Shown: in pieces, positions 612 through 50,400 of the stretch
Position numbering within the stretch: the first letter of the stretch is position 1
Layout: the number at the start of each line of letters is the position of its first letter
Source: Octopus vulgaris
Lineage: Eukaryota
NCBI GenBank assembly: GCA_951406725.2
Contig: OX597830.1
Location: 22,134,001-22,198,000, forward strand
Direction of reading: 5' to 3'
Length of the DNA: 64,000 bases
The notes under the pieces: generated by a model
Database searches by the model: none
What the model saw: only the letters and a program-made list of their open reading frames with translations
Told to the model about the DNA's origin: nothing
Translations under genes and position numbers: made by a program

Positions 612-706
612 CTTGCCATATTTGGTAAAAAGCACTTTAAGGTCTGTAGCACGGGTACTTGTGGCAAGACCACTGACCCACAGATTTCGATTACTTTGGT
701 CATTGC
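612..706 (-). CDS. SAFB: SAFB-like copy B exon 10 (RRM first half)
   Basis: aatag|GC acceptor, AAG|gtatgt donor, 95 nt; (S)[31 protein letters not shown]. Confidence 0.92.
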
Positions 707-3700
707 CTATTAAGTACAGAAATAAACTAATATGAAAAGATTACCAGGAAACCAGACCCTGTAAGATTAAAATTTCAAATACCTCACATTTAAAACAAAA
801 GCTTAGTGAATAAGATTCAGAACATGTAGAATAATAAAAAAACTTACTTCTCATATTCTTGATAACTTTGGGTTTAGAAGCTGAAGAACTGCAACAATAA
901 AACAATCATTGAGAAATATCAGAATGATGATTATCACTAATGAATGTCATAGAAGTGTATTGGAACAATTTTTCATCATTCATATGAATTAAATATAATT
1001 AGCAAAGTCAAACAATATCACTCCATTCTAGGACCCTAACTCTAAATAGATTTGTAGAGATACATATTTAAGAAAACAAATAAGGGCTATGTATGTATGT
1101 ATATAGACATATACATATGCACTTCTTAAAGAAATTTTTATTATGTAAGGGAGAAAGAATGATGCAATAGAATAACTAATATTTAGCAAAGCATAGACAT
1201 TCCACACACTATGTAGTAATGTAAATATTTATATTAACATCATATTGCATATAGGGGAAAGCATAATGATAGAAGAAGCTTACCTGCTGCAAAGATGTGT
1301 TTTTGTAATAGTCATTTATTATCCCCTTTCAGGAATAAATGAATACAAAAGACACTAATTTCAAATGAAGATATTGGTGAAGACAATAAATGGATTACCT
1401 AAACTAGCTAACAACTGACACCACACATCAGCAACATGTGACCAACACTTATGAAGAAAAATGTACAAAAATACAAGAACTATAGTCTTCATGAAGCTAA
1501 AAAGAGGTCAGCAAGCAATGTGGAATTCCCTAAAGATTAACTGCTAATTTAGCAGGAACATGGCTGGAATACAGGAATCTTAAACTCAGACTTTTTGCTT
1601 TCCAAACATCTTCCAATTTGTATCTTGTCAAAAACATTTATTATCTAACATCGACTAAGTCCTGTCATTTTATTCTTGGGAACTTCAGGATCCCTCCTAT
1701 TCCTCCTCTGCTTCAATTGTAGTTGCCATCTTCGTCAAAACAGATAATTTGGCTTCTTGATATTGGTTAATCTGTTCCTGTGGAGAATGCGTCAGTAATT
1801 TGGTAATCACTTAACATCTGACTCTGAGAATGTGCAATTATATTTCAACTGAGACTCCTGACCCCAGCCAACCCCCGAACACTTTGCTGGCCCTTTTTAG
1901 TTCATGAACTATAGTTTACGATAACCATCTAAAATATGATGAATACTAGCGCAACATTAACTAGCAAACATCCTCATTGGTATCATCCATCACATGTACA
2001 CTCACAACAATTTACATCAATTTTTTAAGAGACTAAGAAATGACCCAGGAGAAAACGTGGGTTTTCCTTTTTGTCTCAAACATGAATAACTAATGGAAAT
2101 ATACCTCAGATAAGTTCAGGTTAATTACAGCCCAGGCCATGTCTTTAATAGTATTTCCAAAGTACAATCTTTACAGTAGATTTTCCTGTTTTATGAAGAA
2201 GACTAGGAAAATGTCTATCATTATTATAATTAGTAGTTTGAACCTGAATCTAACAACCAAACAACACACACTCACATATTCTGTTTTAAAATAACTCACG
2301 ATTAGCCATGAGAGGATGTTCTCTGAAGAAAACCTACTTAAACAGGTTAACTTAAGGTTCAAGAAAATCTGTTCCCATTGGCAGTTGTAGACCCCAGTTG
2401 CAGTCAAGATGTCAACATCTGTTACCGAGAAGTAAGATCATTTAACTAATGACATCTTTGAATCAAAGCAGTGGGAAAGATGACATGAAAACCAACCTCT
2501 TCGACTTTACATCTTTATCATCTTTCTTTTCATCAGCCTTCTTCTCAGTTTGCCCTCCTTCTGTTTTACCTTTAGCCCTTTCTTCAACTTTGCTTCCATC
2601 TGTTTTCTTCGCTTCAGTTTTGCCACGCACTTTGTCCTTTGATGCCACAAGATCAGCATCTAAATCATTCTGTGTATCATCAACATGTACAATCAGTGAT
2701 TCATTTTCTTCACCCTGTTGAGTGTTGGAAGTGTCCATACTGACTGTGTCTTTTAATGCAAATGGAACTTTACGTGGAACACTCGGTGTTGAAGGTAAAT
2801 TGTCCGAAAGAGCTGTTTTGGCCACCTTATCTCCTTTCAGTTCATTACATTTTTGAGATGGAGTTGTGCTTTTCACACTGGCTGACAAGGATTTTTCTTC
2901 ATTATTTTCTTCTTTTGTGTCATTCTCTGCTGATGAGGATTTTTCTTCATTATTTTCTTCTTTATTATCATTCTCTGCTGACAAGGACTTTTCTTCATTA
3001 TTTTCTTCTTTTGCGTCATTCTCTGTTGATGAGGACATTTCACTCTTTTCTTCTTTAGTATTTGTCTCCGCTGACGAAGATGACTGTTCTGGAGGCGCTA
3101 CAGAAAGTTAATTTAGAATGAAATAGTTGATACGAAATGAAAACTTGTTAAATCTCACTCCACAACAGACTGTGCTGTGTTGAGAGTTTAAATAAAAAAA
3201 TTAAGAATGCAATTAAGAAAACATTACTAATAAAAGCTCTTAGACTGGTAATCCTACAGGATCAATGGACTATAAGCTCTATAGCTGAAATATGGATAAT
3301 AATTATACTTCACATAGAAATTTAGCATTAAATTTTCACTGCAGATGTCTTCAATGGTATTGCCCACAACATACATTCAAAATACAACTGAAGTACTTGT
3401 ATAGAACAATGGACAAAGCTACAGGCTCTCAAAAATTACGGGATCTGGATATATGTTGGAACATACTATGCTGCTTGTGCAATGGCAAGCGATATATATA
3501 TGAGCATGTACTGTATCACTTGACTGTGTAACTACAAGCAGGATTGGCTTAGTAGACTTCAATAATTGTGCACTGTCTATGAAATGGCAAGTAATTTTAT
3601 CAGAGATGCAATAAAATGACTGTAGTAAAGTTTTGACACCCATCACTAAGTCATCAGTCATTCAGAAAGATGACTTCTCACTTGTACTTAATATATACAT

Positions 3701-5855: not shown

Positions 5856-8800
5856 CAATCACAAATATATAATATATTCTGAATACAAGATTCAAAATTC
5901 TGAATTCAACTAATAGTTCTATTCCTTGAAAAAAGACCTGACAAGCATTATCTTGAATCAACAATTTTTCATCCATTATTTTACTAATTATGCTAAAATT
6001 AACTTTCACTGCTCATAGAACTACTTCTGCAGGTGTTGTCATAAATTATTAGAAATTATTTTATGCTATTTTGTACAAATTTTGATCTTGAAACATTAAC
6101 AGATTAATTCTACAACTTACATAACCAAGCTCACAACCATATTTTGAGTTTTGTTATCAGAGTGGAATGGCATGAATGAGCTAACATTCCAATTCTTCTT
6201 CTTTACGTATCTGGAGTATTTTGTTTACATCAGACGACAATTATTGGCAATATAAATGTTACAGAGATAAGGATCAGACAACTATCTAAATCCTGGTTTT
6301 GTTTCTGTTTCTAAATGATATTTCAATTTCATATTATTGCACTATAAAAAGCATGAGTCTCACACAATCTTATTCCACCTCACCTATAAATGAAGTCACC
6401 TTTAGCTTATGTTGAAGCAACAAAGCAATATTCAAAACATGGCACGCATCCCCATGAAAAACTCTGAATTTGATGAAAGAAGTAGATATCCAAAATTATA
6501 CATCTAAATCTAATTTAAACCCTTTAGCATTGTAACTGACCAGATCGGGTCTAAATATTCTCCCTGCTTTATATTCAAACTGGCCAGATCCAGCATCTCA
6601 CACCTACACAACAATGTCACTCTAAAACTCAATGCTATGAGATACTGAAGGATTAATTCAAAACAATGTGCATAAATAAGCATTGCATTTGACAGAGCAA
6701 TATAATTGCTAAAGGGTTAAACTAAGCATGAAGCAAAAATAACAAACAAGTGATACTGCAACACAGGATATGAAAAAGAAAACTACTGATGAATTAAAAC
6801 TACACATACACACACACCCACATATACTATAGCAGAGGAGAATTGACTATCCTTATCAAAAAGGAAAGGTTAAACAAAATTTTTGCTTTTCCACAATATG
6901 AACAAGAAAACTACAAACCACTTGACTTAAAGCCACACACACACACACACACACACACTATAGCAGAGGAACAAGCATTGAGTATCCTTATCAAAAAGGA
7001 ACGGTTAAACAAAATTTTTGCTTTTACAATGCCTTGAAATTTTATTATCAGTGCCATTCATTTACACTTTTTGATGTTACAGAGATATTTATCAGCTTTG
7101 TTTTTATTGGTAATTCTTATCAACAACTTTTCTTATGATTGTGATTTGAAAAGACCTGCAGCAATATGCTGAAGATTGGACATAATCTCTTGTGGGTAAG
7201 AAATGTAAAATAAAGTTTATCATAAACAACATAAACAATTTGTAATATAATAGCTTTCAATGTTTCAAACAGAAATTATTTTTATTTAATGAAAATTTAA
7301 TAAAATCTAATCATAAGTAAGTGAAATTATGCTAAATACAACTAAATTGAAAACTTTTTTCCCCTAGCTATATCGGCAATTCTGAAAACTTTTGGGTGCG
7401 AATTTTACATGAGTAGAAGCTTTTTTTAACAGATTTTATCCTGAAAATCACAAGTGCGCAATTTACATGGGTTTTTACAGTAGTAGTTGACTATCATATA
7501 TTGAACCAATATAGTTCATTCTAAACTAGAAATTTATATGACTTCTATAAGAAACCTTCATTAACAATGTATATATTATTGGCAAAACTCAGTTTGTGTG
7601 AATATTATATTTGGTTGTGTTTTGTTACTTTCGCTGAAAGGTGGAGAATGGCTCAACAGTTTAAGGTCAACCAAAGTATACAAAATGATAATTTTAGGAA
7701 ATTTAATGCATATGAATGACATACCTGTGGTATCCATTAATGGTCCACCAGGCTCTTCCTAAAAAAGCGAAGAAAATACCTGACATGACTAACAGCAACA
7801 AATGATGAAACAAAATACATACAGTTGTATTACATTGCTTATCTTTATATCTAATGTAATTGTGTAAATGTATGAAGATATTTGGATCTCAAATGGTTTT
7901 CTGTTTGAAGAGTTAATGAAATTTGTAACTGGTTAACTGTTAAATGTAAGTAACTACCAAACCTAATCAAAAATTATTTTCATACATATTATTAAGTTAA
8001 AAATGCCAAATCCAAAACTAATTATGAAGTAGTGTAATTTAGTTAATAGAACAATAGCTGTAGTAAATGTTCATTACCTGCAGATCAGTACAAGTGTCTT
8101 TGTCCGTATCTAAAGATATAGGTAGTTCCTCTTTAAACTGGTCTTTATCAAAGGTGTTATCTGTCAACATATCTGATGGTTTGGTATCGCTTGAAAGCAG
8201 TCGATCCTCAGTAAGGTCTTCCACAGAAGTTTTGTCAGGGATCAAAGAGTACCCATCTGTATTCGTAGTGTTTAAGAAGACATCTGTTAATGCCACATTA
8301 GATGTCTCTGATTCTTTCTAAAAATTAAAACAAAACAGGTTTCTGTTAACCATCAACACTGAATCATCCTATATTTATCCTTTGCTCACTGTAATATCCA
8401 TTAGTACCTTATTCTTATTCAATGCTTAAATTATTACTGTATTCCATTTTCACTATAAGGAATTTTATAGTATTATTATAGAATAATAGTACTTTCTTCT
8501 TTGAGATTCACAGTGATCATTGCTGTGCTACAGGTAAAGCTCTTTTCAGTTATGAAATTCAACTGTTATTAATGACCACAGTACGTCTGTGTACTTCCTT
8601 TTCATGGATAGCATTATCAAACTGACATTGAAATTCTAACACTAAAGTAAACTAAGTGAACACATCACAGTAGAGTATGATCATCAGGTGAGATCTAAGT
8701 GTTTCTGAATCCTAGCAGTTTTTGCAACTTTGCAGGTTAAGCACTAAAAAGGGTTCAGTTCAAGATTATTCCCTAATAAGTGCAATGATTCTGTCTTTGC

Positions 8801-32400: not shown

Positions 32401-35400
32401 CAGAAGCAGATGTCTTGTTGTAGAGGAGGTACATAGTTACCCAGCCAGAGAGACAAGATGAGGGGGAGAGGAAGAGAGCAAGAGAGGGAAAGAAGATGCA
32501 ATATATATATATCAATAACAGAGGAGTTACAGGAAGCTAGCTGGTTGCTATAGCAACACCTCTCCATGCATGTCCACTCCACACATGCACATCAGCAACA
32601 TTCATCTATTTCTTGAAAATGGGGTCATAACCCCAAAATATTGAATACAAGGTAAGTCTACATTAATTCACATATTTGTTTTCTTGTGATTTACCTTGCA
32701 TTTACTTCGCATTGTTTTGGCCTTACCCACAATCCTTTATACAATATTTATATATACATATACATATATACTAGATGTACCCACTGTAACCTGTTGGGCC
32801 ACAACCACTCTGAGTTGAATGCATGGAAGGAAAGAAAAAATACTATTTTGAATTTCATGAAATAAAATTCTTAAATAATACAGTTCTACTACCTTTGGTG
32901 TGATAACATGAACACAACCAAATGTTTCTTATTTGAAAATGTTCAAATGGCCTTCAACGTTTTTTTCCCGCCTTCTTTTTTGCCATTCTTTGCTACTGCT
33001 GTTCCAAGTGAAATACATGGGTACTTAAGCATAAAGTAATGTTTTTGCAAAGTCATCATTGATGCACAATGAAAAGAATTCTGTCAATGTTGTTTTCATA
33101 TATTGTTCATTGACAGATATATTTATCCTCATTATTTCTGAGCAATATCCTTTGTTCATCTGGTAGATGAACTTGCAGCCTCACTACTGCAGGTGCTCTT
33201 TCATGAATCAAAAATCCTAAAATGGATGCAACTGCTTTGGATAGTTCAATATATCTACCCATTAGATATTGACTAATTTCGTTATCATTGTTTATTCGAA
33301 CAGCTGCTAGGTCATTTCATTTCAGTGTGTACTTGATGATGTACTTAACTGACCTCTCTGAGGCATCAATCTCAATGTTGCAGTGGCATTCGAATGCTCT
33401 TAAAAGAGTTTCATTATAAGGTACAACTCAGTTGTTGTTTGTTTTCCCATTCTTTTGAGATTCAACTCCTTCCATTGCAACTGATCAGAAAGGGATAGTC
33501 TCTCTGTCTGTTTTTCTGCCGTTTGATTAAGATGATAAAGATTAATATTTTATTTTAAATAAAATAGTAATTTTCCCCTTTAAGAAAAAAAAAATCAAGT
33601 ACCTGTTAACATCAATAAAAATTACAGAAAGGAGACACAACAGATATCATTCAGCATACCTTGCCATATGTGGTAAAAAGCTTCTTAAGGTCTGTAGCAC
33701 GGGTACTTGAAGCAAGACCACTGACCCACAAATTCCGACTGTTTTGGTTGTTGCCTTTTAAATACAGAAATGCATCAATAAATATGAAAAGAGGGATGAA
33801 GGTCCAAATTTCAAATATTTCAATCTGTAGAAATAAGCTGAGAAAGCAAGGAAAAAAAATATCAGGAAATGTGGTACGAGAAAAAAATAACAACTTACTT
33901 TTGATGCTTTTGAGAACTTTGGGCTTAGAATCGGAAGAACTGCAACAATAAAATAATCATTTAGAAATATTACAATCATCAATAATGAACGTTATGCAAT
34001 TGAATTGCAACATTATTTCATGATAAGCATAAATATAAATGGAACTAGCAAACACACAGAATACCACTTTATGTTAGGGACTTCAATCTAAACATATGCA
34101 GAGTTATGTACAAGAGTGAACAAAGTATGAATGTTTGTTTGTGTGTGTGTGTGTATGAGGGGGTACCCAAAAGTAACTATAAAGATTCTCTGTTGGACAA
34201 GCCTGGTGTAGTTCAGGCTTCTGTCACTAGAAGTCACTTGATGCAACCCTTAGGCATCAGTCTGCTGACTGGCGGCATCAGGTTACGTTGAGCTGCCATG
34301 TAGTGCATCTTTGTTTTGCTGTGTTTCTCCAGTTTGTCAATTTTTGCAATGAAGGAACAGCATGCTTCCATAAAATTCTGTTCTCTGCTGAGGCAAACAG
34401 TTGCTGAATAGCTGTCATGCTTCAAACAGATTACAAGGACATCGCCATGAGCATAGCACAAGTTTACAAGTCACTTGTTGCTTAACAACCAACCTCATTC
34501 AGGGTGACCATTGACACCCGCCCTACCTGAACAAATGAAAACAGCACAAAAATTCATGAACGAGGACCACTACCGAACAATTAACGAACTTGTTGATATG
34601 ACTGGGGTGTTCTGGAGCTCCTGCCAATGAATTTTGAGTGAGGAATTCCAAATGTTACAGCGAAATTTAGGCCTTGCTTGCTCATGGAATATCAAAAGCA
34701 GTCAGGACTGAATGTGTGCCATGAACTAAAAGAACAGTTGAAAGTTGGTCTTGCTCCCTGCGACCTTTTTTTGTTTCCCTGAATGTAAAATGTCCTTAAA
34801 GGAAAATGTTTTGCAAATGTGGAAGAGGAGAAAAAAACAACGGAGGTGTTGAAAGGCATCACTTTGCAAGAGTTCCAGGACTGCTTCAAACAGTAGAAAA
34901 TGCATCTGGACTGACGTATTGCTTCAAATGGATAATATTTTGAAGGTGACAGAGGTGCAAACATGCAAAACTAAGTGAGTAAAATAATATTACAAAACTC
35001 TGGTTTCTTTTGGGTACCCCCTCGTTTATATATAAACACACACACACAGAAAATCTTCATAAAACAAGTGACAATTATGTAAGGGAGAAAGAACAAATGT
35101 AACAACATAACTTCAACAAATGTTATACCCACCTAGTTAATATTTTTATCATTACTATCAAATTAATATTGTATGTAGGGGAAATGTGATGATGAAAGAA
35201 GCTTACCTGATATAAAATGTGCTTTTGTACATTTATTACCCCATTTCAGGTATAAATGAATACAAAAACCACTGATTTCAAACGAAGATATCGGTTAAGA
35301 TCATAAATGGGTTACCTAAATTAACTAACAACTGACACCACACATCAAGTGACTAACACTTATGAAGAAAAATGTACGAAAAGACAAGAACTATAGTCTT

Positions 35401-38400
35401 CATGAAGCTAAAAAGAGGTCAGCAAGCAATGTGGAATTCCCTAAACATTAACTGCTAATTTAGCAGGAACATGGCTGGAATACAGGAACCAGGCTTTCCA
35501 AGCATTTTCCAGTTTGTATTTTGGCAGAAAAATTATTAATTATCTAACATCCGTAAAGTTGTGTCTTTTTAGTCTTGAAAACTCAGGATCCCTCCTCTTC
35601 ATCTGCTTCAATTGTTGTTGCCATCTTCATCCAAACAGACATTTTTGCTTCTTGACATTGGTTAATCTGTTCCCATGGATAATACTTCAGCAATTTGGTT
35701 AATCTCCTAATGTCTGAGATTGAGCACATGTAATTAATAACATTCCAATTGAGATTCCTGAACCCCAGCCGACCCCCTAAACCATTTGCTGGCCCCTTTT
35801 TATTTCATGAACTATAGCTCACAATAACCATCTAAAAGATAATGAATATTTCCTAATATAAGCAGCGCAACATTATCTAACAATAATCTTCATTGGTATC
35901 ATCCATCACATCTCAACTTAAACACTCATACTATAATAATCTCTTATGAGGCTGTAGCAGACAACCCAGGAGAAAATATGGGTTTTTAATTCTTTCATTT
36001 TTGTTTCAGATATCAGAAACTAATGAAAAGTTATGTCAAATAGGTTTTGGTCAATTATAACCCAGGCTAAGATGTGAATAAGAGTTTTCCACAGAACAAT
36101 CTTTACAGTAGATTTTCCTGTTTTATGAAGAAGACTAGGAAAATATCTACCATTATTATAATTAGTAGTTTGAACCTGAATCTAACAACCAAACCACACA
36201 CACACAAACACTCACATATTCTGTTTTAAAATAACTCACGATTAGCCATGAGAGGATGTTCTTTGAAGAAAACCTACTTAAACAGGTTAACTTAAGGTTT
36301 AAGAAAATCTGTTCCCATTGGCAGTTGTAGACCCCAGTTGCAGTCAAGATGTCAACATCTGTTACCGAGAAGTAAGATCATTTAACTAATGACATCTTTG
36401 AATCAAAGCAGTGGGAAAGATGACATGAAAACCAACCTCTTCGACTTTACATCTTTATCATCTTTCTTTTCATCAGCCTTCTTCTCAGTTTGCCCTCCTT
36501 CTGTTTTACCTTTAGCCCTTTCTTCAACTTTGCTTCCATCTGTTTTCTTCGCTTCAGTTTTGCCACGCACTTTGTCCTTTGATGCCACAAGATCAGCATC
36601 TAAATCATTCTGTGTATCGTCAACATGTACAATCAGTGATTCATTTTCTTCACCCTGTTGAGTGTTGGAAGTGTCCATACTGACTGTGTCTTTTAATGCA
36701 AATGGTGCTTTACGTTTAACTCTTGGTGTTGAAGGTAAACTTTCCGAGACAGCTGTTTTGGCCACCTTATCTCCTTTAATTTCATTACATTTCTGTGATG
36801 TTGTGCTTTTCACACTGGCTGATGAGGATGATTTTTCGCTATTTTCTTCTTTTGAGTTATTCTCTGTGGATGAAGACATTTCACTGTTTCTTTTTTCTTT
36901 TGTATTATTCTCTGCTGACAAGGACATTTTATTGTCTTCTTCTTTTGTGTTATTCTCTGTTGATGTGGACATTTCACTCTTTTCTTCTTTTGTATTCGTC
37001 TCTGCAGATGAAGATGACTGTTCTGGCAATGCTACAGAAAGTTAATTTAGAATGAAATAGTTGATACGAAATGAAAACTTGTTAAACCTCACTCCACAAC
37101 AGACTGTGCTGTGTTGAGAGTTTAAATAGAAAATAAAGAAATAAAGAAAGAAAACATTACTAATAAAAGCTTTTGGTCTAGTAATCCTACAAGATCAATG
37201 GACTATATAAGCACTACAGCTAAAATACGGATAATAATTATACTTCACATACAACTTGTGTCAAATTTTCATTCCATATGTCTTCAACGGTATTGCACTC
37301 AGCACACATTCAAAGCATAGCAGAAATACAAAACATTGGACAAAACTATGGGCTCACAGAAAATAAACATGGATCTGGATATAATCTTGTACAATATACT
37401 AAAATTATCACACTCATATATGTGCTTGTATTACAGCATTTTCTCATGCTATTGTGAGTGGCATTGGTCAATTTGGACATTTACAGGTAAAGGAATGGCT
37501 GTGTGGTTATAAAGTTCACTTAGTAAATGCCTGATTTTGTCTTCCATTCCTCATCATGGCATGGCATCTTGAGCAAATGTCTTCTATGGCCTTGGTTGAT
37601 GGAAACTGTACAAAAATCCAATATATATATATATCCACACATACACACTCTACTTCTCTCGAATATACACATGTACATGTATATATTTGTGCATGTGTGT
37701 GAACCATGTGTCTTCACAGAGTCAATGCTTGAGCAACTGTGATGTTTTACTGCAAATGATGTGTTGTAACCTGGCAGTTATAAAACTGTGAGATCTAAGA
37801 AGATAAAACATATTTTACTTGTAAAACAAGTAAAGGGTGGCAAAAGGAAAGGCACCTGGCCATAGAAAATTACTTCAGTAAATCACATCCAATCTATGTC
37901 AATGTAGAAAAACTTGGTGTAAAAATGATAATGCACACCACTTATGCAATAGCTCGTAATTGATCAGAGAAACAATAAAATAGCTGTGGCAAGATTTAAA
38001 ACCCATGATCAAGTCATCAGTTGTTCAGATAACTAACATCTCAGTTGTTGTGCTTCATATATCCATCTTCTTCACTCACTATTCCTGGGAGGGTTAGGGG
38101 AGTAGAGTCCTCAGGCATCTGCAACTATCAGTATCCCTTTCTGGCTGGATTCCCAAGTGTGACTAGCTGAGACTTAGCCAACCATCACATTTACCGTCTA
38201 TGCCTTGGACTCCCATTGGTTGGCTTGGCTTGAAGAATCATTTTGCAATTCCTTTCTACAACCTACTAATTACATATCCATAGAACCAAAGCTGTGACTC
38301 TCAATAGGGAGAAGTAGCAGCATGACCTAGGCAGACATCCAAGCTATGCACCTTGTCAAGTAACATTACTCAGGAAATCCTTCAGAGGAACCCCATAAGA

Positions 38401-41400: not shown

Positions 41401-44400
41401 TGCAATCATTTTAACACCATTCAGCACTTTCCATGAACCAACCATAATACCTCCAATAATACCTATTCAAATCGTGATGCTTTCTCCCCCATGTTGGCTT
41501 CTCAAGTGTTGATGACGATCTGATCTATTTAAAACATATCCCTTGCTCCAACCATCAGTTACATCAATGCTTGCACAAGTTTCATCCCTGAACAAAACTT
41601 TTGAAAGGTTGACCTTCATGTCAGTTTCTACCCGTTTCAGACGATTTTGTACGTGTACTTTGTATAAAGGAGGCCCTTTTAACTGATGTCACTGGTTTAC
41701 TGACCTTTTTCAGAAGATGACATCGGATAATTCTGGACACAGTTGTTTTGCCAATGCACTTGAAAAGTTCTCCACTTGTAAGACCTGGGTTCTTTACAGC
41801 TTCATGCCTAATTCCTGACAGAGAACTCTGAGAAACAGCCCTCGACTGACCCTTGTCGGCTCTCTTATGTCTCGTTGTAGGACATGTAACAAATTTTTTC
41901 ACAGTTTGGTGATATCTTCCAATTATTTTAGATATTTCTAATGTTGGTTTACCTTTTGCAAGTTCAGAAGTAATAACAGGTTTCTCTAAAGTAGTTAAAT
42001 CACATTTACGACCCACAATTACATGATTATCAGACTACTCGTTAATAATTTGGAACACTGAAAGTTCATGGAAATCATGCAAATGGCTGCAGTTTCTTTA
42101 CACTTTCGCAAAACCTCATGTTTTTTACACACCACATGCATATAACTGCTGCCATCATTCTGTGGAAATTTCATTGAATTCCAACAAGTAGTTTTTAAGT
42201 AAAATTTTTTAATGTTATGTTATTAATAATTTGAGACCCTGTGTGTGTGTGTGTGGATATGTTTTTTCTGTGATGGTTTTTGCTAAGCAGCATCGATTTT
42301 TATAATTCTGTAAATAATAATAATAATAGTGTTTTATAAGCTTTAAGCTTATAAAATACTATTATATATATATAGGTACATACACATATATAACTACATG
42401 GGAATCAAAACTGATTATTCTTAAAAAGGGGCAGGGAATTGGCTTTCACAATTTTGCATTAATTCTGGCTATTTTCAATATCAATTACATTCACTGAAGT
42501 GTTGCAACACTACAGGGGTACTATAGCCTTTCCATCAATAACTTTAATAGTTGCTCCCAAAATTAAAAACTTATTTTTCAAACCATCATTTTATCCCATA
42601 TTTTAGAGTTCCTAAAAAAGAATCAAATATAGTCAGCCATATCTCATATTAAACTTAACTAGTGAAAACCATGAATACTTAGCAGACAATCTTGCAATAT
42701 TGTCTTCATAGAGACACAGGTATTGGTATGTTGTAAAGAAATTTGCTTCCCAATCACATTTTGGGTTCAGTTCCACTGCATGGTACTGTAGTCCCAGACC
42801 AATTAAAGCTTTGGTAATGGATTTGGTAGACAGAAACTGTAAGAAGACCATGAGGTATGTGTGTGTGTGTGTGTGTGTGTGTGTCTCATTGTGTTGACAT
42901 TGTGTAACAGTTGTGAATGAGAGTCACTGTCATACAAACAGTGTCATTTATTTGCAATATTTTGCAAGAACATGACTAGCCATGGCGAAATATTACCTTG
43001 CTTGGAAACAGATGAGGATTAGTGACAGGAAGGGCATCCAGCCATAGAAAATCCATCTCAATAAACTCTGATTCATGCAAATATGGAAGAGTTGACATAA
43101 GAATGGTGATTCAAGGGATGATACACAGAGATGATTACTTTCTCTAGCTATATAAATGGACTTCAGCTTACAAAAAGACATTAGTCAGAGAACAGTTTGG
43201 TGCCCCAGCATGGCCGCGGCCTTCGGGCTAAAACATTTTTAAGGATTTAAGCTAGGTATATTGATTCATTGAGAGATAAGTACTCTGAACTGAGACAGTG
43301 AAGTACCAGCAACAGAATATAAACCTTTTATCCTTCAGTCTGTAAGCTAACAGCTCAGCCAATTATACTTCACAAAACTAAACAGTATAAACCAATTGTC
43401 TATGTCAAAGACAACAGTGGAATGACAATGAACTTTCTTCTAATACCATCATATACTAGAGTAGAAGTTTATACACTGTATATTGAACCAATATAAGTTC
43501 CTCAGAAAAGAAAAGTTCATATGAACCTTTATTAACAGCAAATGTGTCATTGGTAAAAAAAGACAGTTTGAACATTGTATCAAGAGTTGTGTTTCATTAT
43601 TTTCATTGAGAGAAGGACAGGGACTCAACAGGTGATATGAGATCAACCAAAATATTCAATAAGCAAATAATTTTAGAAAATTTGCCAAAACTGAATTACA
43701 TACCCATGGCATTCTTTAATGGATCATCGGATTCTCCCTGAAAAATGAAGATACAAAATGTCTTACATGACTAACAACAACAAATGAAAGAAAATACATA
43801 GAGTAGTATTACTTTTTCATCTTTATATTAAACACAATTGTGAACGATAAGCGAATCAAGCTATTTTGTTCTCAAATAGTTTTCAGATTGAGAAATTGGT
43901 GGCATTTGTAACTGATTAACTTTATCAAAGACAAGCAACTACTGAACTGTGAAGTAAAATTATTTTCATCCATATTATTAAGTTAAATATTATCAATTAA
44001 GAAGTAAAAGCATAAATTTCCACTGAAACAAGTAATGTGATGTAGCTAAAGTATTAATTTAAAACAAGTCAGTTTACCTGCAGAGCAGCATCAGTTTCTT
44101 TGTTTGTATCTAAAGTAGTGGCAGGTAGTTCTTCCACAAATTGGTCTTTATCAGAGGTGTCATTTCTCAACATATCTGATGGTTTGGTATCACTTGAAAG
44201 TACTTGATTTTCAGAAAGATCTTCCACAGAAGTTTTGCCAGGGAGCAGAGAGTCAGTGTCTGGATTTGTGTTTGAAAAGACACCAGATGTCTCTGCATCT
44301 TTCTGAAAATTAAAACACAGCAAATATAATAAAAGAAAGCCAACTAGAATATAAATAAATAACTTATTAGATCTTAAAGAAAAAAATATTTAACTAAAGC

Positions 44401-47400
44401 TGAAATTTTTATCATGTCTCTTAATTCTGTTCTATATTTTAGAGATGAAGAATTCTGTATATTATTTACATTGGATGGATATGTGTCCTCATCCTGTTTG
44501 TTGTTACCACAATGTTTCAGCTGATTTACTCTCCAGCCATCATCAGGTGTCCTGGTACAATTTTGAACCCAACCCTGGGTTCTGATTCCAAAGGTATTTT
44601 TTTTTATATAAAATTCACTCTATAATTGCCCACAGGCATATAGCATAATGGTTAAGAGCACAGGCTACTAAGCTCAAGATTCCGAGTTCAATTTCAGGCA
44701 GTGCCTTGAATAATGATAATAATATCAGCAAAAAAAAAACACCCTGAGGAATGCAAACCCAGGGTTGGGTTAAAAATTCTACTAGGACACCTGATGAAGG
44801 CTGGAGAGTAAATCAGATGAGGACACATATCCGTGCACTGTAAATAATGTCTTTTAATTGTATTTCACATTTTATCTAAATCTACCAACTTAAATTCACA
44901 GCTATCTTCATCAATGAAAACATTTCATTGATGAATGGGTCAAAGTTACCATTCAGACTACACCACCATAAGTAATTGACCATCCATACATTCATCTCTA
45001 CCCATTATTCCTGGTAGGATCATGGGGTTAGAGTCCTCAGGTACCTCCTCCACAGGGTCCTATCAAAAGCAACATCTTCTGGTTGGATCCCTAAGCACAG
45101 CCAACTGAGACTATCTTTTACTTGTTTTAGTCATTAGACTGTGGCCATGCTGGGGCACTGGCTTGAAGAATTTTTAGTCAAATGAATTGACCCCAGTGCT
45201 TATTTTTTTTAAAGCCTAGTACTTATTCTATCAATCTCTTTTGCAGAACTACTAGGTTATGGGAACATGGACACACTGGTTGTCAAACAGTGATGGGGGA
45301 CAGACACACACACACACACACATACATGACGGGCTTCTTTTAGTTTCCATCTACCAATTCCACTCACAAGGCTTTGGTTAGCCTGAGGCCATAATAGAAG
45401 ACATATGCCCAAAGTGCCATGCAGTGGGAAGTGAGCCTCTTATCACACAGTCACGTCTGCACCTGGATATTATCCAACCATGTCATTCTCGGTCCACCCC
45501 CTTAGGCCTCCTGCTGGTTGGCTCAGTTTCAGGAATGTGTCTTGCGATTCTTTCCTGTGACATTCTAATCCCATGTCCAGAGCTGTGACCTCCCAATGCA
45601 GAGAAGCAGCCGTCAACCTGGAGAAATTCCCTGATCTCCAAACAGCACATCCAGTTGAGCAACATTACTCCAGAGATCATTCAGAGAAACCCCATTTTGC
45701 AGGAGATAAGTAATTGACAATACTGAGAATTGACAACTATGAAACAGGAAGTGAAATAGTGATATATATATAGTGAATCTAGGCCACCACAACAACTTTC
45801 ACCAAATAACACAAAGAAAATGGAAAATATATCATGTCATTGTCACTGAATACTTTAATTTCAGGTAATGAGCCATGGGTAAACCAGACCCATCCACTAC
45901 TATGAATTGAACCTATGTTACAGTTTATGATTACTCAAATCTCACCAGCCTCCTGAACAGTCAAACACGTCTCCAAATAAGAGTGTTATAACTCAGAAAG
46001 TAGCTTTTATATTTTTGGCACCATGACAAAGTAAGTCATCTACTTCTTATGACAAACAATGAAATAAATGATAAGCACCACTACCAACAGATGACATTCT
46101 AATTAATAATTTCTAACAAATGGAAGATAAACAGAAGAAATTAACTAATTCATAAAAAAAGATCACAAACTTCACCAACCTCATCCATGTTGTCTGCAGT
46201 TGATTTATTTTCTGGAAATTAATATAATTAATATAATTAGCTCAGAGATATTAATCAGTTACGTGTATCATTACATGACAAAATAGTGTATCACACATCT
46301 GAACACAAAGTAAAATAGTTTAACACTGCAAGGTCAGATATGACATTGAGGTAAACACACCACTATAACATATTCAATTGTATATTAGATAGTTATAACA
46401 CCACAGAACAAGTCGCTGTTTTAGGATTAATTATCATGTTAACATATGTGCAATCTGCACATATGGCTGTCTGGTTGAGAAGCTTGCTTCCCAACCATGT
46501 GGTTTCAGGTTCAGTCCTACTGCACAGCACCATCAGCAAATACCTTCTACTACAAGCTTTGGGCCAATCAAAAGCCTTTGAATGGATTTACAAGAAGGAA
46601 ATTGAAAGAAGCCTGGCGTATAGATATATGTTTGTCTGTGCATGCATGTGTATCGAACCCTTGATTTGTCATCACTTGATGGTTGTAAACAAGCATCACC
46701 GTCATAGAAGCAATGTTGTTTGTTGTCAGTCTTCGATGGAAACCAAGTGTGGCCATGGGAAATATTATGTTGCTTGGAAATAGGTGGAGGATGACAGCAG
46801 GAAAGGCATCTGGACATAGAAAATCTGCCTCAATAAATTCCATCTGATCTATACAAGCATGGAAAAGTAGATATTAAATGATGACAATGACAACATAGGC
46901 AGGAAGGGTTTCAAAGCACAGTTTACCATATCCTATATTTTTGTCAATGAGTGACACATGAAAGGCACCCACTTTGGTGACATGTTAAAGGCACCCATGC
47001 TGGTGACTCATTAAAGGCACCCACACTGATGACATGTTAAAGGCACTTATGCTGGAAACATGTTAAGGGCACCCATGCTGGTGACACATTAAAGGCACCC
47101 ATGTTAGTGGCACATTAAAGGCACCTGTGTCAGTGATATAATAAAGGCACCCATGCTGGTGACACATAAAAAGAATCCATGCTGGTGACATGTTAAAGGC
47201 ACCCATGCTGGTAACACATTAAAGGCACCTGTGTCAGTGACACATTAAAGGCACCTGTGTCAGTGACACATTAAAGGCACCTGTGTCAGTGATACATTAA
47301 AGGCACCTGTGTTGGTGACACATTAAATGCACCAGTGCAAGTGACATGTTATAAGCACCCATGTAAGTGACATGTAAATGTCACCCATGCCAGTGACATG

Positions 47401-50400
47401 TTAAAGGCACCCTTGCTGGTGACATGTTAAGGGCACCCATACGGGTGACACATAAGACACCCAGTACATTCTATCCAACCAAAGAAACCAAGCCAAAATA
47501 GACTGGAACCTGGTGCAGCTCTCTGTTCTAGTTCTAGTCAAACTGTTTAACCCATGTCAACATGGAAAATGGATGCTAAATGGTGATGATGATAGGACAG
47601 GAACTTGTCAGCCGAGCAGACTGAGGTAAGTAGTTTGCTAGTCCAAAGTGAAATTGTCGTGACTGACAAATTTCTCAGTATCATCACCAATGCTGTTACT
47701 GGAATCAGCAATGGAACTTTAGATACCCTCAACAACACTAGTCAATATAGACACATATTCACACAGGTACCTATATAGCATCTATGTTTAACATTTTAGT
47801 TGTAGACCTGTGATACTTACGAAGAACATCTGTAGGTTCACTTTCTTCCTGGAATTTATCTTCACTCAAAACCTAAAAATGTTAAAATTTAAAATAAACT
47901 TACAGAAACCTCTGTATAATCTGTTACATATAATAAGAATAGGGAAGAATGAAAAGAAAAAGAATGCTATAAGAAAATTAGGAAAAAAACATTACATATG
48001 AAACCATGGTCAAACATCATTGGTTTAAGTGTAATTTAGCTAGAAGAAAGATACTCAACAAAATTTTCTTGGTGTATTTCATATAATTCATTTGAGTGGT
48101 GTTACAGTGAAGATAATTAGGGAGTGGGGAAAAAAGCTATGAGGAATAAAGGACTAAAAGAAACTAGTGAAGATAATTAAAGGGTTGAGAAAAACTAGGA
48201 TATAAAAACAACATTATTACCTCATTTTCTCCCAAGTCAGTTGCATCTGAAAAACAGAAATAAATAATAATAATAATAATAATAATAATCCTTTTGCATT
48301 TAAACCAGCCCAAATATTCTGTTTTATGTCAAAACTGGTTAGATCCAGACTCTTAATCTGCCAGACGTCATTCTAAAAATAAACAATCACATGATTGAAA
48401 TCTTGAAGCTGTGAGATAATGCATGATGGATTCAAAAGAATCTGGATAAATAAGCATTACATTTGACAGAATAATCTGAATGCTACAAAGTTAATGGTTT
48501 CAAACTTTAGACAAGGCCTGCAATTTTAACAGGAGGTGAATTTGGGTAGCTGATCGCATCAACTATCAACCATCCCACCCCCAGTACTTGACAGGTATTT
48601 ATTTTATTAACCTTGAAAAGATAAAAGGCAAAGTCAACCTAGATGACACTTGAACTCAGAACGTAAAGAGTTGGAAGAAATGCCACCAAGTATTTTGTCC
48701 GATGCCCTGACAATTCTGCTATATTGCTGTCTTAACCCTTTAGCATTTAAATTACTGTCAAATGCAAAAGCCTATTCATTCATATTGTTTTGAATTAATC
48801 ATGCATTATCCTGTAGCTTTGAGATTTTGATGAGGTGATTGTTTATTTCTAGAATGTCATTGTAGGTACAAGAGGCCTGATCTGGTCAATTTGATCATAA
48901 AACTGGTAGAATATTCGGGCCAGATATGGCCAGTTTAAATGCTAAAGGATTAATAATGATAATAACAATCAATTAAGAGAAAGAAAAATTTAAGTGAAAG
49001 AGAATATGTATTATTGAATTAACAAGTGAACTTTCACATTAATTGTACATTGACTTTACAGCAAGTACATTATTACAGCCGCACCATAAAGTTCAAAGGT
49101 TACTTTCAAATTTGCTTTTGTTTTGTTTATAATATTGAACTTTTACAATGCATTTGAGACAACAAATCCTCTCCTATTTCCATACATCATAATACTAAAG
49201 AGCTGTCACTGTATATATTATTCACGTCAGCAATGACCTTGCTAATTCCCAGTAGTCAGTGGACAGAAAATTGTTTTGTCATGCAATTTATTGTCTTCCT
49301 GTGAGATCTATAAAGCCAATTCAGATATTCTGAATGCTTGATGACTTGCACCCAACCGAGAGTTGCTTGAGTTTGTAGACAGCTTATATGCGACTACAGT
49401 CTTGTCAGACTCAGATATAAGGGAATCTTGTAGTGTTCAACTTTTCTTTCAGACCATGATATATTTAACTATGCAATTCCTTCTTAGATAGACTTCAGAG
49501 ACCTGCATTTTCATGAATTTGACAAGTAAATCATTGTTTATGTACAAGAGCTAAGACTGCTTAAAGTAGCACTCATCAAAAGATTTCATTGAAATTTTGT
49601 CTTTGGTATACTATGCATATACCATAGAGATAGATAAAACATTTTAGCAGATGTTAAACAAACAAAAGAGCCAGTATGCAACCCTGAGGTAGACTACTTT
49701 ATAATATCCATGTGCATCCATTTTTGCTATCCAGAATTGTAAAGGAATGTCTACTTCCAATCATAACAAAGATAAATTACATGAAATTCATACCCTTTAA
49801 ACTGTATATCATTTAACAATAACATCCGATCGTAGCCGTTTGCCAGCCTCATCTGGCACCTGTGCAGGTGGTACGTAAAAAGCACCCACTACACTCATGG
49901 AGTGGTTGGCGTTAGGAAGGGCATCCAGCCATAGAAACATTGCCAGATCAGACTGGGCCTGGTGCAGCCTTCTGGCTTCCCAGGCCCCAGTTGAACCGTT
50001 CAACCCATGCCAGCATGGAAAGCGGACGCTAAACGATGATGGCAGTTAATCATATCATATATAAGCGGATGTCAGATCAACAAAAACTGCTCCTATAGTA
50101 TACCACTTCCTCTGTGTATTGAGTGAGATTAAATACTTGGCTGCAGTTAACTTTCCAAAATAAAATCAAGAACACAAATGTTCTTGCAACTATCAAAGAT
50201 TTTCTTTGAATTGCACAAACACTATTTTTAATGTAAATCATAATAAAATATTCATCACTCCTGTACTTATAAGGAAGTCAGTCAAGAGTACTACCAAAGA
50301 TAATGGAACTTCAAGATAGCTAAGACAAAATGTAACTCACTGGTTGGAACTGTATCTGCTTTTTCTTTACTTCCTTCAGTATGTTCAAGAGTTTCTCCTT

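Follow-up and report, generated by a model that had tools for sequence, protein, structure and literature searches.

Skipping of a long A-rich exon with a conserved weak donor in octopus SAFB genes: a possible feedback switch shared by paralogs

Described splicing switches and the SAFB family

Several described systems, considered here as far as the available parts of the cited papers go, resemble the octopus SAFB genes. The skipping-NMD switches of PTB (PTBP1) exon 11, nPTB exon 10 and ROD1 (PMC1940037) likewise combine a repressive RNA-binding protein, a skipped exon that shifts the frame, and a switch common to paralogs. Self-regulation by the protein was shown for PTB, whereas for octopus SAFB we infer it. 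PTB exons are short, whereas the SAFB exon, coding exon 8, is about 600 nt long and A-rich, with a weak donor that is kept in distant homologues. The auto- and cross-regulation of RBM10 and RBM5 (PMC5737846) is also a negative feedback via skipping of an essential exon (3n+1 or 3n+2 in length), but in another protein family. The class of essential exons was defined in PMC6547761, the main text of which contains no mention of a SAFB or SLTM event, and the supplement of which, in the part available, has SAFB and SLTM only as data sets. The ultraconserved poison exons of SR-protein genes are similar in the near-invariant surroundings of splice sites in a gene for an RNA-binding protein; in SAFB, however, decay would follow skipping rather than inclusion, and no inclusion of a candidate cassette was seen in the RNA described below.

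The proteins of the SAFB family act in competition with SR proteins and suppress long exons of over 33% A, mostly over 1 kb (PMC10901741). According to the same paper, loss of SAFB1 is followed by a rise of SAFB2 or SLTM, for which the available text gives no mechanism. Octopus exon 8 resembles these giant cassette exons as a long, A-biased, purine-rich target in a family where paralogs rise when one is lost: it exceeds 33% A and is rich in purines, but falls short of about 1 kb, and the published targets lie in other genes, with no SAFB exon named in that text. In Drosophila saf-b (PMC2857882), as in octopus, alternative splicing drops the RRM, and intron-retaining forms are annotated; form D of saf-b, however, is in frame and makes a protein, and the intron-retaining forms were unconfirmed by the authors of that study.

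We found no AS-NMD event in any SAFB gene in the literature covered, subscription papers, some supplements and database annotations being outside its scope. In the available parts of the individual sources, the supplement files of PMC7726792 gave no matches, PMC13247117 has no mention of SAFB, and PMC7764535 and PMC3240583 have it in their references only. Skipping of SAFB exon 8 with NMD would resemble the switches of the PTB exon 11 and RBM10/RBM5 type.

The SAFB cluster and the exon 8 donor block

The window, that is, the whole analysed stretch of 64,000 nt of Octopus vulgaris DNA, contains two SAFB genes on the minus strand, copies A and B (Table 1). In both, the long exon comes eighth among the coding exons, and its protein matches, at up to 96%, annotated Octopus SAFB proteins that have SAP and RRM domains. 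The same contig carries seven copies of the region within about 260 kb: A and B in the window, and C5, D7, E2, F6 and G4. Six of them are full paralogs, D7 being the seventh copy. The cluster extends over about 22,047,000-22,308,000 of the contig, with the four minus-strand copies followed by the three plus-strand ones; at exon 8, the inverted copies B and E2 are almost the same in sequence, and so are C5 and F6. The RRM of C5 and F6 is strongly diverged (about 42% identity).

Table 1. Features of SAFB copies A and B in the window and of intron 8 (window positions)
Feature	Position	Strand	Remark
Copy B exon 7, 34 nt	7725..7758	-	Donor used with exon 8 (inclusion) or exon 9 (skip)
Copy B exon 8, 601 nt (3n+1), 43% A, 66% purine; the exon skipped	2497..3097	-	
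Copy B exon 9, 41 nt; skip-frame stop at 853-851	848..888	-	Joint 888-2497 in RNA
Copy B exon 10 (RRM begins here), 95 nt	612..706	-	
Copy A exon 7	43704..43737	-	
Copy A exon 8, 595 nt (3n+1), 45% A	36437..37031	-	
Copy A exon 9; skip frame open until stop in exon 11	33899..33939	-	
Near-invariant stretch around the weak donor (exon 8, last 150 nt; intron 8, first 85 nt), probably an element for splicing control	2412..2646	-	
Weak exon 8 donor GTTGGT	2491..2496	-	7/7 octopus copies; 3/3 distant homologues (L028-L030)
Candidate cassette; only first 7 nt and block around donor well kept	2300..2418	-	No spliced use seen
Copy A version of candidate cassette	36240..36358	-	
Conserved intron block; F6 has lost the AG of its acceptor-like site (before 1496)	1476..1571	-	91-95/96 against five paralogs
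Poly(A) signal AATAAA (1320-1315), 37 nt before strong donor CAG/GTAAGC (exon side ends at 1284)	1284..1320	-	End of alignable intron 8
Copy A poly(A) signal and distal donor	35207..35237	-	

Exon 8 and its acceptor are kept in all six full paralogs of this genome, with lengths of 487-601 nt, an A content of 40-45%, and a length of 3n+1 in each. Since the phases on either side dictate this length, it does not count as separate evidence of selection. The 5' half of the exon consists of repeats of about 45-51 nt in numbers that vary between copies (2880-3090 in B, 36818-37008 in A), and contig joints omit or duplicate one repeat unit there. Among other local features, an intron of copy A carries a tandem repeat of 26-nt period (46950-47463), and a C/D-box-like stretch directly precedes exon 9 of copy B (914-985, minus strand). 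Copy A does not retain its boxes, and its Rfam matches in B (SNORD73, SNORD101) are weak, with E 0.2-0.3, far below the gathering score.

The best conserved part of the region is centred on the donor of exon 8. Between B and the five other full paralogs, the last 150 nt of the exon agree at 145-150 positions, and the first 78 nt of the intron at all 78. Over its first 80 nt, intron 8 is identical at 80 positions, compared with 48-59 of 80 in four other introns, and in a distant paralog pair the neighbouring intron is 68% identical, far below the donor block. The incomplete copy D7 retains 62 of the first 67 nt of the intron, but only 48/75 of the exon end; this intron-only conservation fits selection better than a single conversion tract. 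On the protein level, 28 of the 38 proteins examined are Octopus records, from three species, that cover the peptide encoded by the exon 8 end, and the peptide is nearly constant in them; cuttlefish and argonaut have similar final residues. The letters of the donor as such are not rare in the gene, since the exon 5 donor likewise reads AG/GTTGGT in both A and B (about 46180 and about 9350, minus strand).

The weak donor has counterparts well beyond the cluster. A scan of metagenome contigs yielded, among 154 pattern matches, three distant animal homologues of SAFB exon 8 (L028-L030), in which the exon is 517-583 nt long (3n+1), contains 60-63% purine and 32-37% A, and ends in AG/GTTGGT in all three cases. 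In one of these, L029, the exons of 41 nt and 95 nt and the RRM are present as well, and the skip frame ends at a stop in exon 11. For both L028 and L029, the distances to cuttlefish and to sea-spider proteins are about equal. Beyond the donor, the octopus intron element was not recovered in L028-L030, of which L028 includes 78 intron nt only, and an exact search of the metagenome contigs for this element returned no matches.

The earlier note, made from the letters of the window, had proposed a 119-nt cassette downstream of exon 8. The centre of the conserved block is the exon 8 donor and not this cassette.

Exon 8 skipping in RNA and competing explanations

Splicing was followed in assembled contigs of seven of 24 listed runs, which belong to five studies and bear three organism labels. 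The runs are not labelled as RNA; the spliced joints in their contigs indicate that all seven contain it. Copy B was compared with runs X1, X2, X5 and X9, which gave a complete joint table of four rows and 27 loose ends, 24 of them viewed; paralog G4 (locus L031) was compared with X9, X14, X10 and X6, with the best 15 of 41 joints viewed. Contigs drop rare forms, and their depth cannot rank splice forms or parts of a gene.

A joint from exon 7 directly to exon 9 with GT..AG ends (715>9147 on L031) was found at G4 in X9 and X14, and inclusion joints, 716>7001 among them, were found in all four G4 runs. At copy B, exon 7 letters were found on the loose ends at 3099 and 891, and the joint 888-2497 connects exons 8 and 9; the exon 7 letters behind place 891 number 122 in X9 and 15, as a short loose end, in X1. 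Altogether, evidence of skipping comes from three of the seven distinct runs, from three of the five studies and under three organism labels. The skip joint is absent in X6 and X10, and the loose ends viewed for X2 and X5 show none.

As the length of exon 8 is 3n+1, skipping shifts the frame. The resulting stop was traced in five of the six full paralogs, to exon 9 in B, exon 10 in C5, and exon 11 in A, E2 and G4, in each case ahead of many later junctions (at least eight exons lie downstream in copy A); F6 was followed through exon 10 only. The locus thus shows the marks of essential-exon skipping: a skip junction beside inclusion, an early stop and a conserved weak site. The general idea of the earlier note, that the paralogs may have a common AS-NMD switch at exon 8 and intron 8, gains support in a different form, as RNA shows skipping of exon 8 itself; inclusion of a cassette is not supported.

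One explanation, which we hold to be unlikely, does without any regulated switch: repeated gene conversion among the tandem copies would have kept the donor region uniform, and the skip junction would come from a decaying copy or allele that lacks exon 8 in some animals. Conversion is suggested by the near-identical A/B tract of about 600 nt that spans the exon-intron border and by the crowding of seven copies in about 260 kb. A decaying copy is suggested by the distribution of the skip, which is missing from four of the seven runs. Moreover, equal contig depths suggest that the skip in X9 and that in X14 each belong to one paralog type, the inclusion junction of which is not among the joints viewed for that run; paralog types cannot be phased in contigs. 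Against this explanation, exon 8 and its acceptor are intact in all six full paralogs here, and in O. sinensis the annotated proteins P0003, P0004 and P0006 have G4-type and E2-type exon 7 sequences followed by an intact exon 8. Further, exon 7 in X14 is connected to exon 8 as well as to exon 9, and conversion cannot account for the same donor in L028-L030 or for the intron-only conservation in D7.

A retrocopy as the source of the skip junction was considered and rejected: among four outside matches examined, three are processed copies without exons 7 and 9 and the fourth is intronic only, so the junction is not explained by them. The processed SAFB copies lie on other contigs (L032 4031-4516, L033 3896-4425, L034 3697-4028); in them, the spliced early exons break off within exon 6 and continue into a late exon, apparently by way of a short word common to both, the RRM is absent, and stops or frameshifts are present.

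A second explanation, in our estimate likewise unlikely though able to coexist with exon 8 skipping, is that the weak donor is mainly bypassed. Exon 8 would then be extended by about 1.2 kb to the poly(A) signal at 1320-1315, giving a SAP-only protein with an 11-letter ending, or would use the strong donor at 1284 for splicing to exon 9, which would produce an NMD target. Judged by the conservation of the signal, a truncated SAP-only isoform, which the earlier note had also envisaged, is possible by this route. The hexamer is AATAAA in five of the six full paralogs and ATTAAA in the sixth, and both an upstream TGTA and the donor CAG/GTAAGC are present in all six. The conserved part of the intron also ends at about this place: the first 1.2-1.35 kb of intron 8 is alignable among A, B and C5, as most other intron sequence is not, and the alignment stops about 25 nt past the distal donor, behind which identity is 67/120 for A and 70/120 for C5. 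Contigs pass the exon 8 donor into the intron in five runs (X1, X2, X5, X9 and X14), one X5 contig covering 2412-2721 unbroken, and contigs of X5 and X14 end 3-5 nt short of 1284; this is a weak hint, since contigs cannot show RNA ends, and an X1 contig (862-1502) continues through the site. Against read-through, no joint from 1284 or into 1496 occurs in the complete copy B table or among the G4 joints viewed, the intron cover may stem from pre-mRNA or DNA, and the predicted peptide end was found in none of the 38 proteins examined.

Other candidate signals in this part of the gene were set aside. Reduced contig cover behind 1284 is not usable as evidence, as depth cannot rank gene parts, and a truncated isoform suggested by the uncovered exon 10 in X5 is equally explained by a copy-A exon 10 below the 90% likeness cut. 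The segments 1916-1866 and 1571-1476 (minus strand), which are among the most strongly conserved blocks of the intron, are able to pair in each of the six full copies, and the pairing would mask the acceptor-like site at 1496; they form the top inverted repeat in four of the six, not above shuffles. With hand-picked arms this long-range duplex reached -53 to -65 kcal/mol, and it was rejected after failing two unbiased tests: 45, 120 and 5 of 150 shuffles attained the best score, itself another pairing, in the first, and 23-49 of 100 did so in the second. A transposon origin of 1270-1930 was likewise rejected, all six matches being SAFB copies.

The remaining explanation is the one favoured by the earlier note, that the 119-nt stretch in intron 8 is a real poison exon, too rare for assembly because it is cleared by NMD. 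The letters are as described there: exon 8 ends at 2497 (AG/GTTGGT) and is followed by a 78-nt gap, the acceptor CTTCTCGGTAACAG before 2418, 119 nt, and the donor ATC/GTGAGT. The copy A version (36358-36240) has two differences from B (2360 and 2323), and inclusion would lead to R-C-stop, with the stop more than 50 nt upstream of a later junction; read-through translation from exon 8 toward the cassette yields 15 protein letters. The identity of A and B, taken as a mark of the cassette, did not hold up as such, for it extends outside it, with six substitutions and one 8-nt indel over 2765-2164 (about 600 nt) and a fully identical stretch of 318 nt (2678-2361) that crosses the exon-intron border.

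Identity of the six full paralogs extends through the cassette acceptor and stops just past the in-frame TGA, and the donor GTGAGT is present in all six, within a 33-nt block that matches at 31-33 positions over the paralogs and at 31 in C5. That level is, however, equalled by 181 of 1108 windows of the same intron, and the cassette body is at background identity: against the distant paralog C5 it matches at 69/99 positions, compared with 245/362 in the intron behind, so conservation above the surrounding intron was not found in this comparison. Besides the true exon 9 acceptor, intron 8 of B contains four donor-like GT[AG]AG sites and four pyrimidine-rich acceptor-like sites, from which an acceptor/donor pair is easily found by chance, as is a 78-nt intron between AG- and GT-like sites. 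In D7 the cassette acceptor AG is absent, though the upstream intron (62/67 nt) is kept. From 70 nt into intron 8 onward, D7 (L007, about 1500) has a TA repeat and unrelated sequence in place of the acceptor and all further conserved intron sequence.

In RNA, junctions at 2418 or 2300 are absent from the complete copy B joint table (X1, X2, X5, X9) and from the loose ends viewed, and the cassette sites in G4 are unused among the best 15 of 41 joints in X9, X14, X10 and X6. Unbroken contigs run across the cassette acceptor in X1, X2, X9 and X14 and across its donor in X1, X5, X9 and X14. Since contigs lose rare forms, and a rare NMD-cleared form could escape, the missing junctions only lower the likelihood of the cassette, while another frameshifting form is visible in the same set of runs. 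Taken with the background identity of its body, this makes a poison exon very improbable; the 119-nt stretch is not supported as an exon and is better described as part of the conserved intron. Separately, hairpins over the exon 8 donor and the cassette were not above shuffles (folds with z of -0.1 to -1.3) and were discarded, and an Rfam scan of 800-3200 gave 0 of 11 matches at the gathering score.

A possible SAFB-dependent control of exon 8

We tentatively prefer, at a little below an even chance, the explanation that SAFB itself drives skipping of the long A-rich exon 8 in its own pre-mRNA and in that of its paralogs, with NMD lowering SAFB levels. SAFB would coat the A-rich exon and outcompete SR proteins there; the weak donor would make the exon sensitive to SAFB, and high SAFB would result in skipping. 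The frameshifted skip mRNA would be degraded by NMD, and the shared donor block may let all paralogs respond to total SAFB.

Several observations do not fit SAFB-driven skipping well. To judge by equal contig depths, the skip in X9 and that in X14 each come from a single paralog type, the pattern expected of a broken copy, and the skip contigs, with depths of 15.2 and 18.1 compared with 11.8-56.5 for inclusion contigs, are not much shallower, which is odd for an NMD target, even if contig depth cannot rank splice forms. At 487-601 nt, exon 8 does not reach the length of the exons under SAFB repression, which exceed 1 kb. The opposite sign is predicted in PMC4689037, in the available text of which SAFB1 promotes inclusion on purine-rich sites. 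Finally, the evidence in X1 consists of 15 letters, and the letters of the weak donor are also found at exon 5.

A broader version of SAFB-driven skipping appears doubtful to us. It would make the long acidic-linker exon with its deliberately weak GTTGGT donor an ancient SAFB sensor across animals, repressed by SAFB in the manner of transposon and giant exons and thereby directed to NMD. The seven octopus copies would be dose-buffered through one donor element, and the same exon would explain the feedback among human SAFB1, SAFB2 and SLTM.

According to the available text of PMC10901741, SAFB proteins prevent giant exons and transposon RNA from entering mRNA. With the exon and its donor named, SAFB feedback becomes testable in existing RNA-seq data from human and fly SAFB knockdown and NMD block. 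If true, SAFB-driven skipping of exon 8 would show how the seven-copy SAFB cluster of octopus could hold one total dose.
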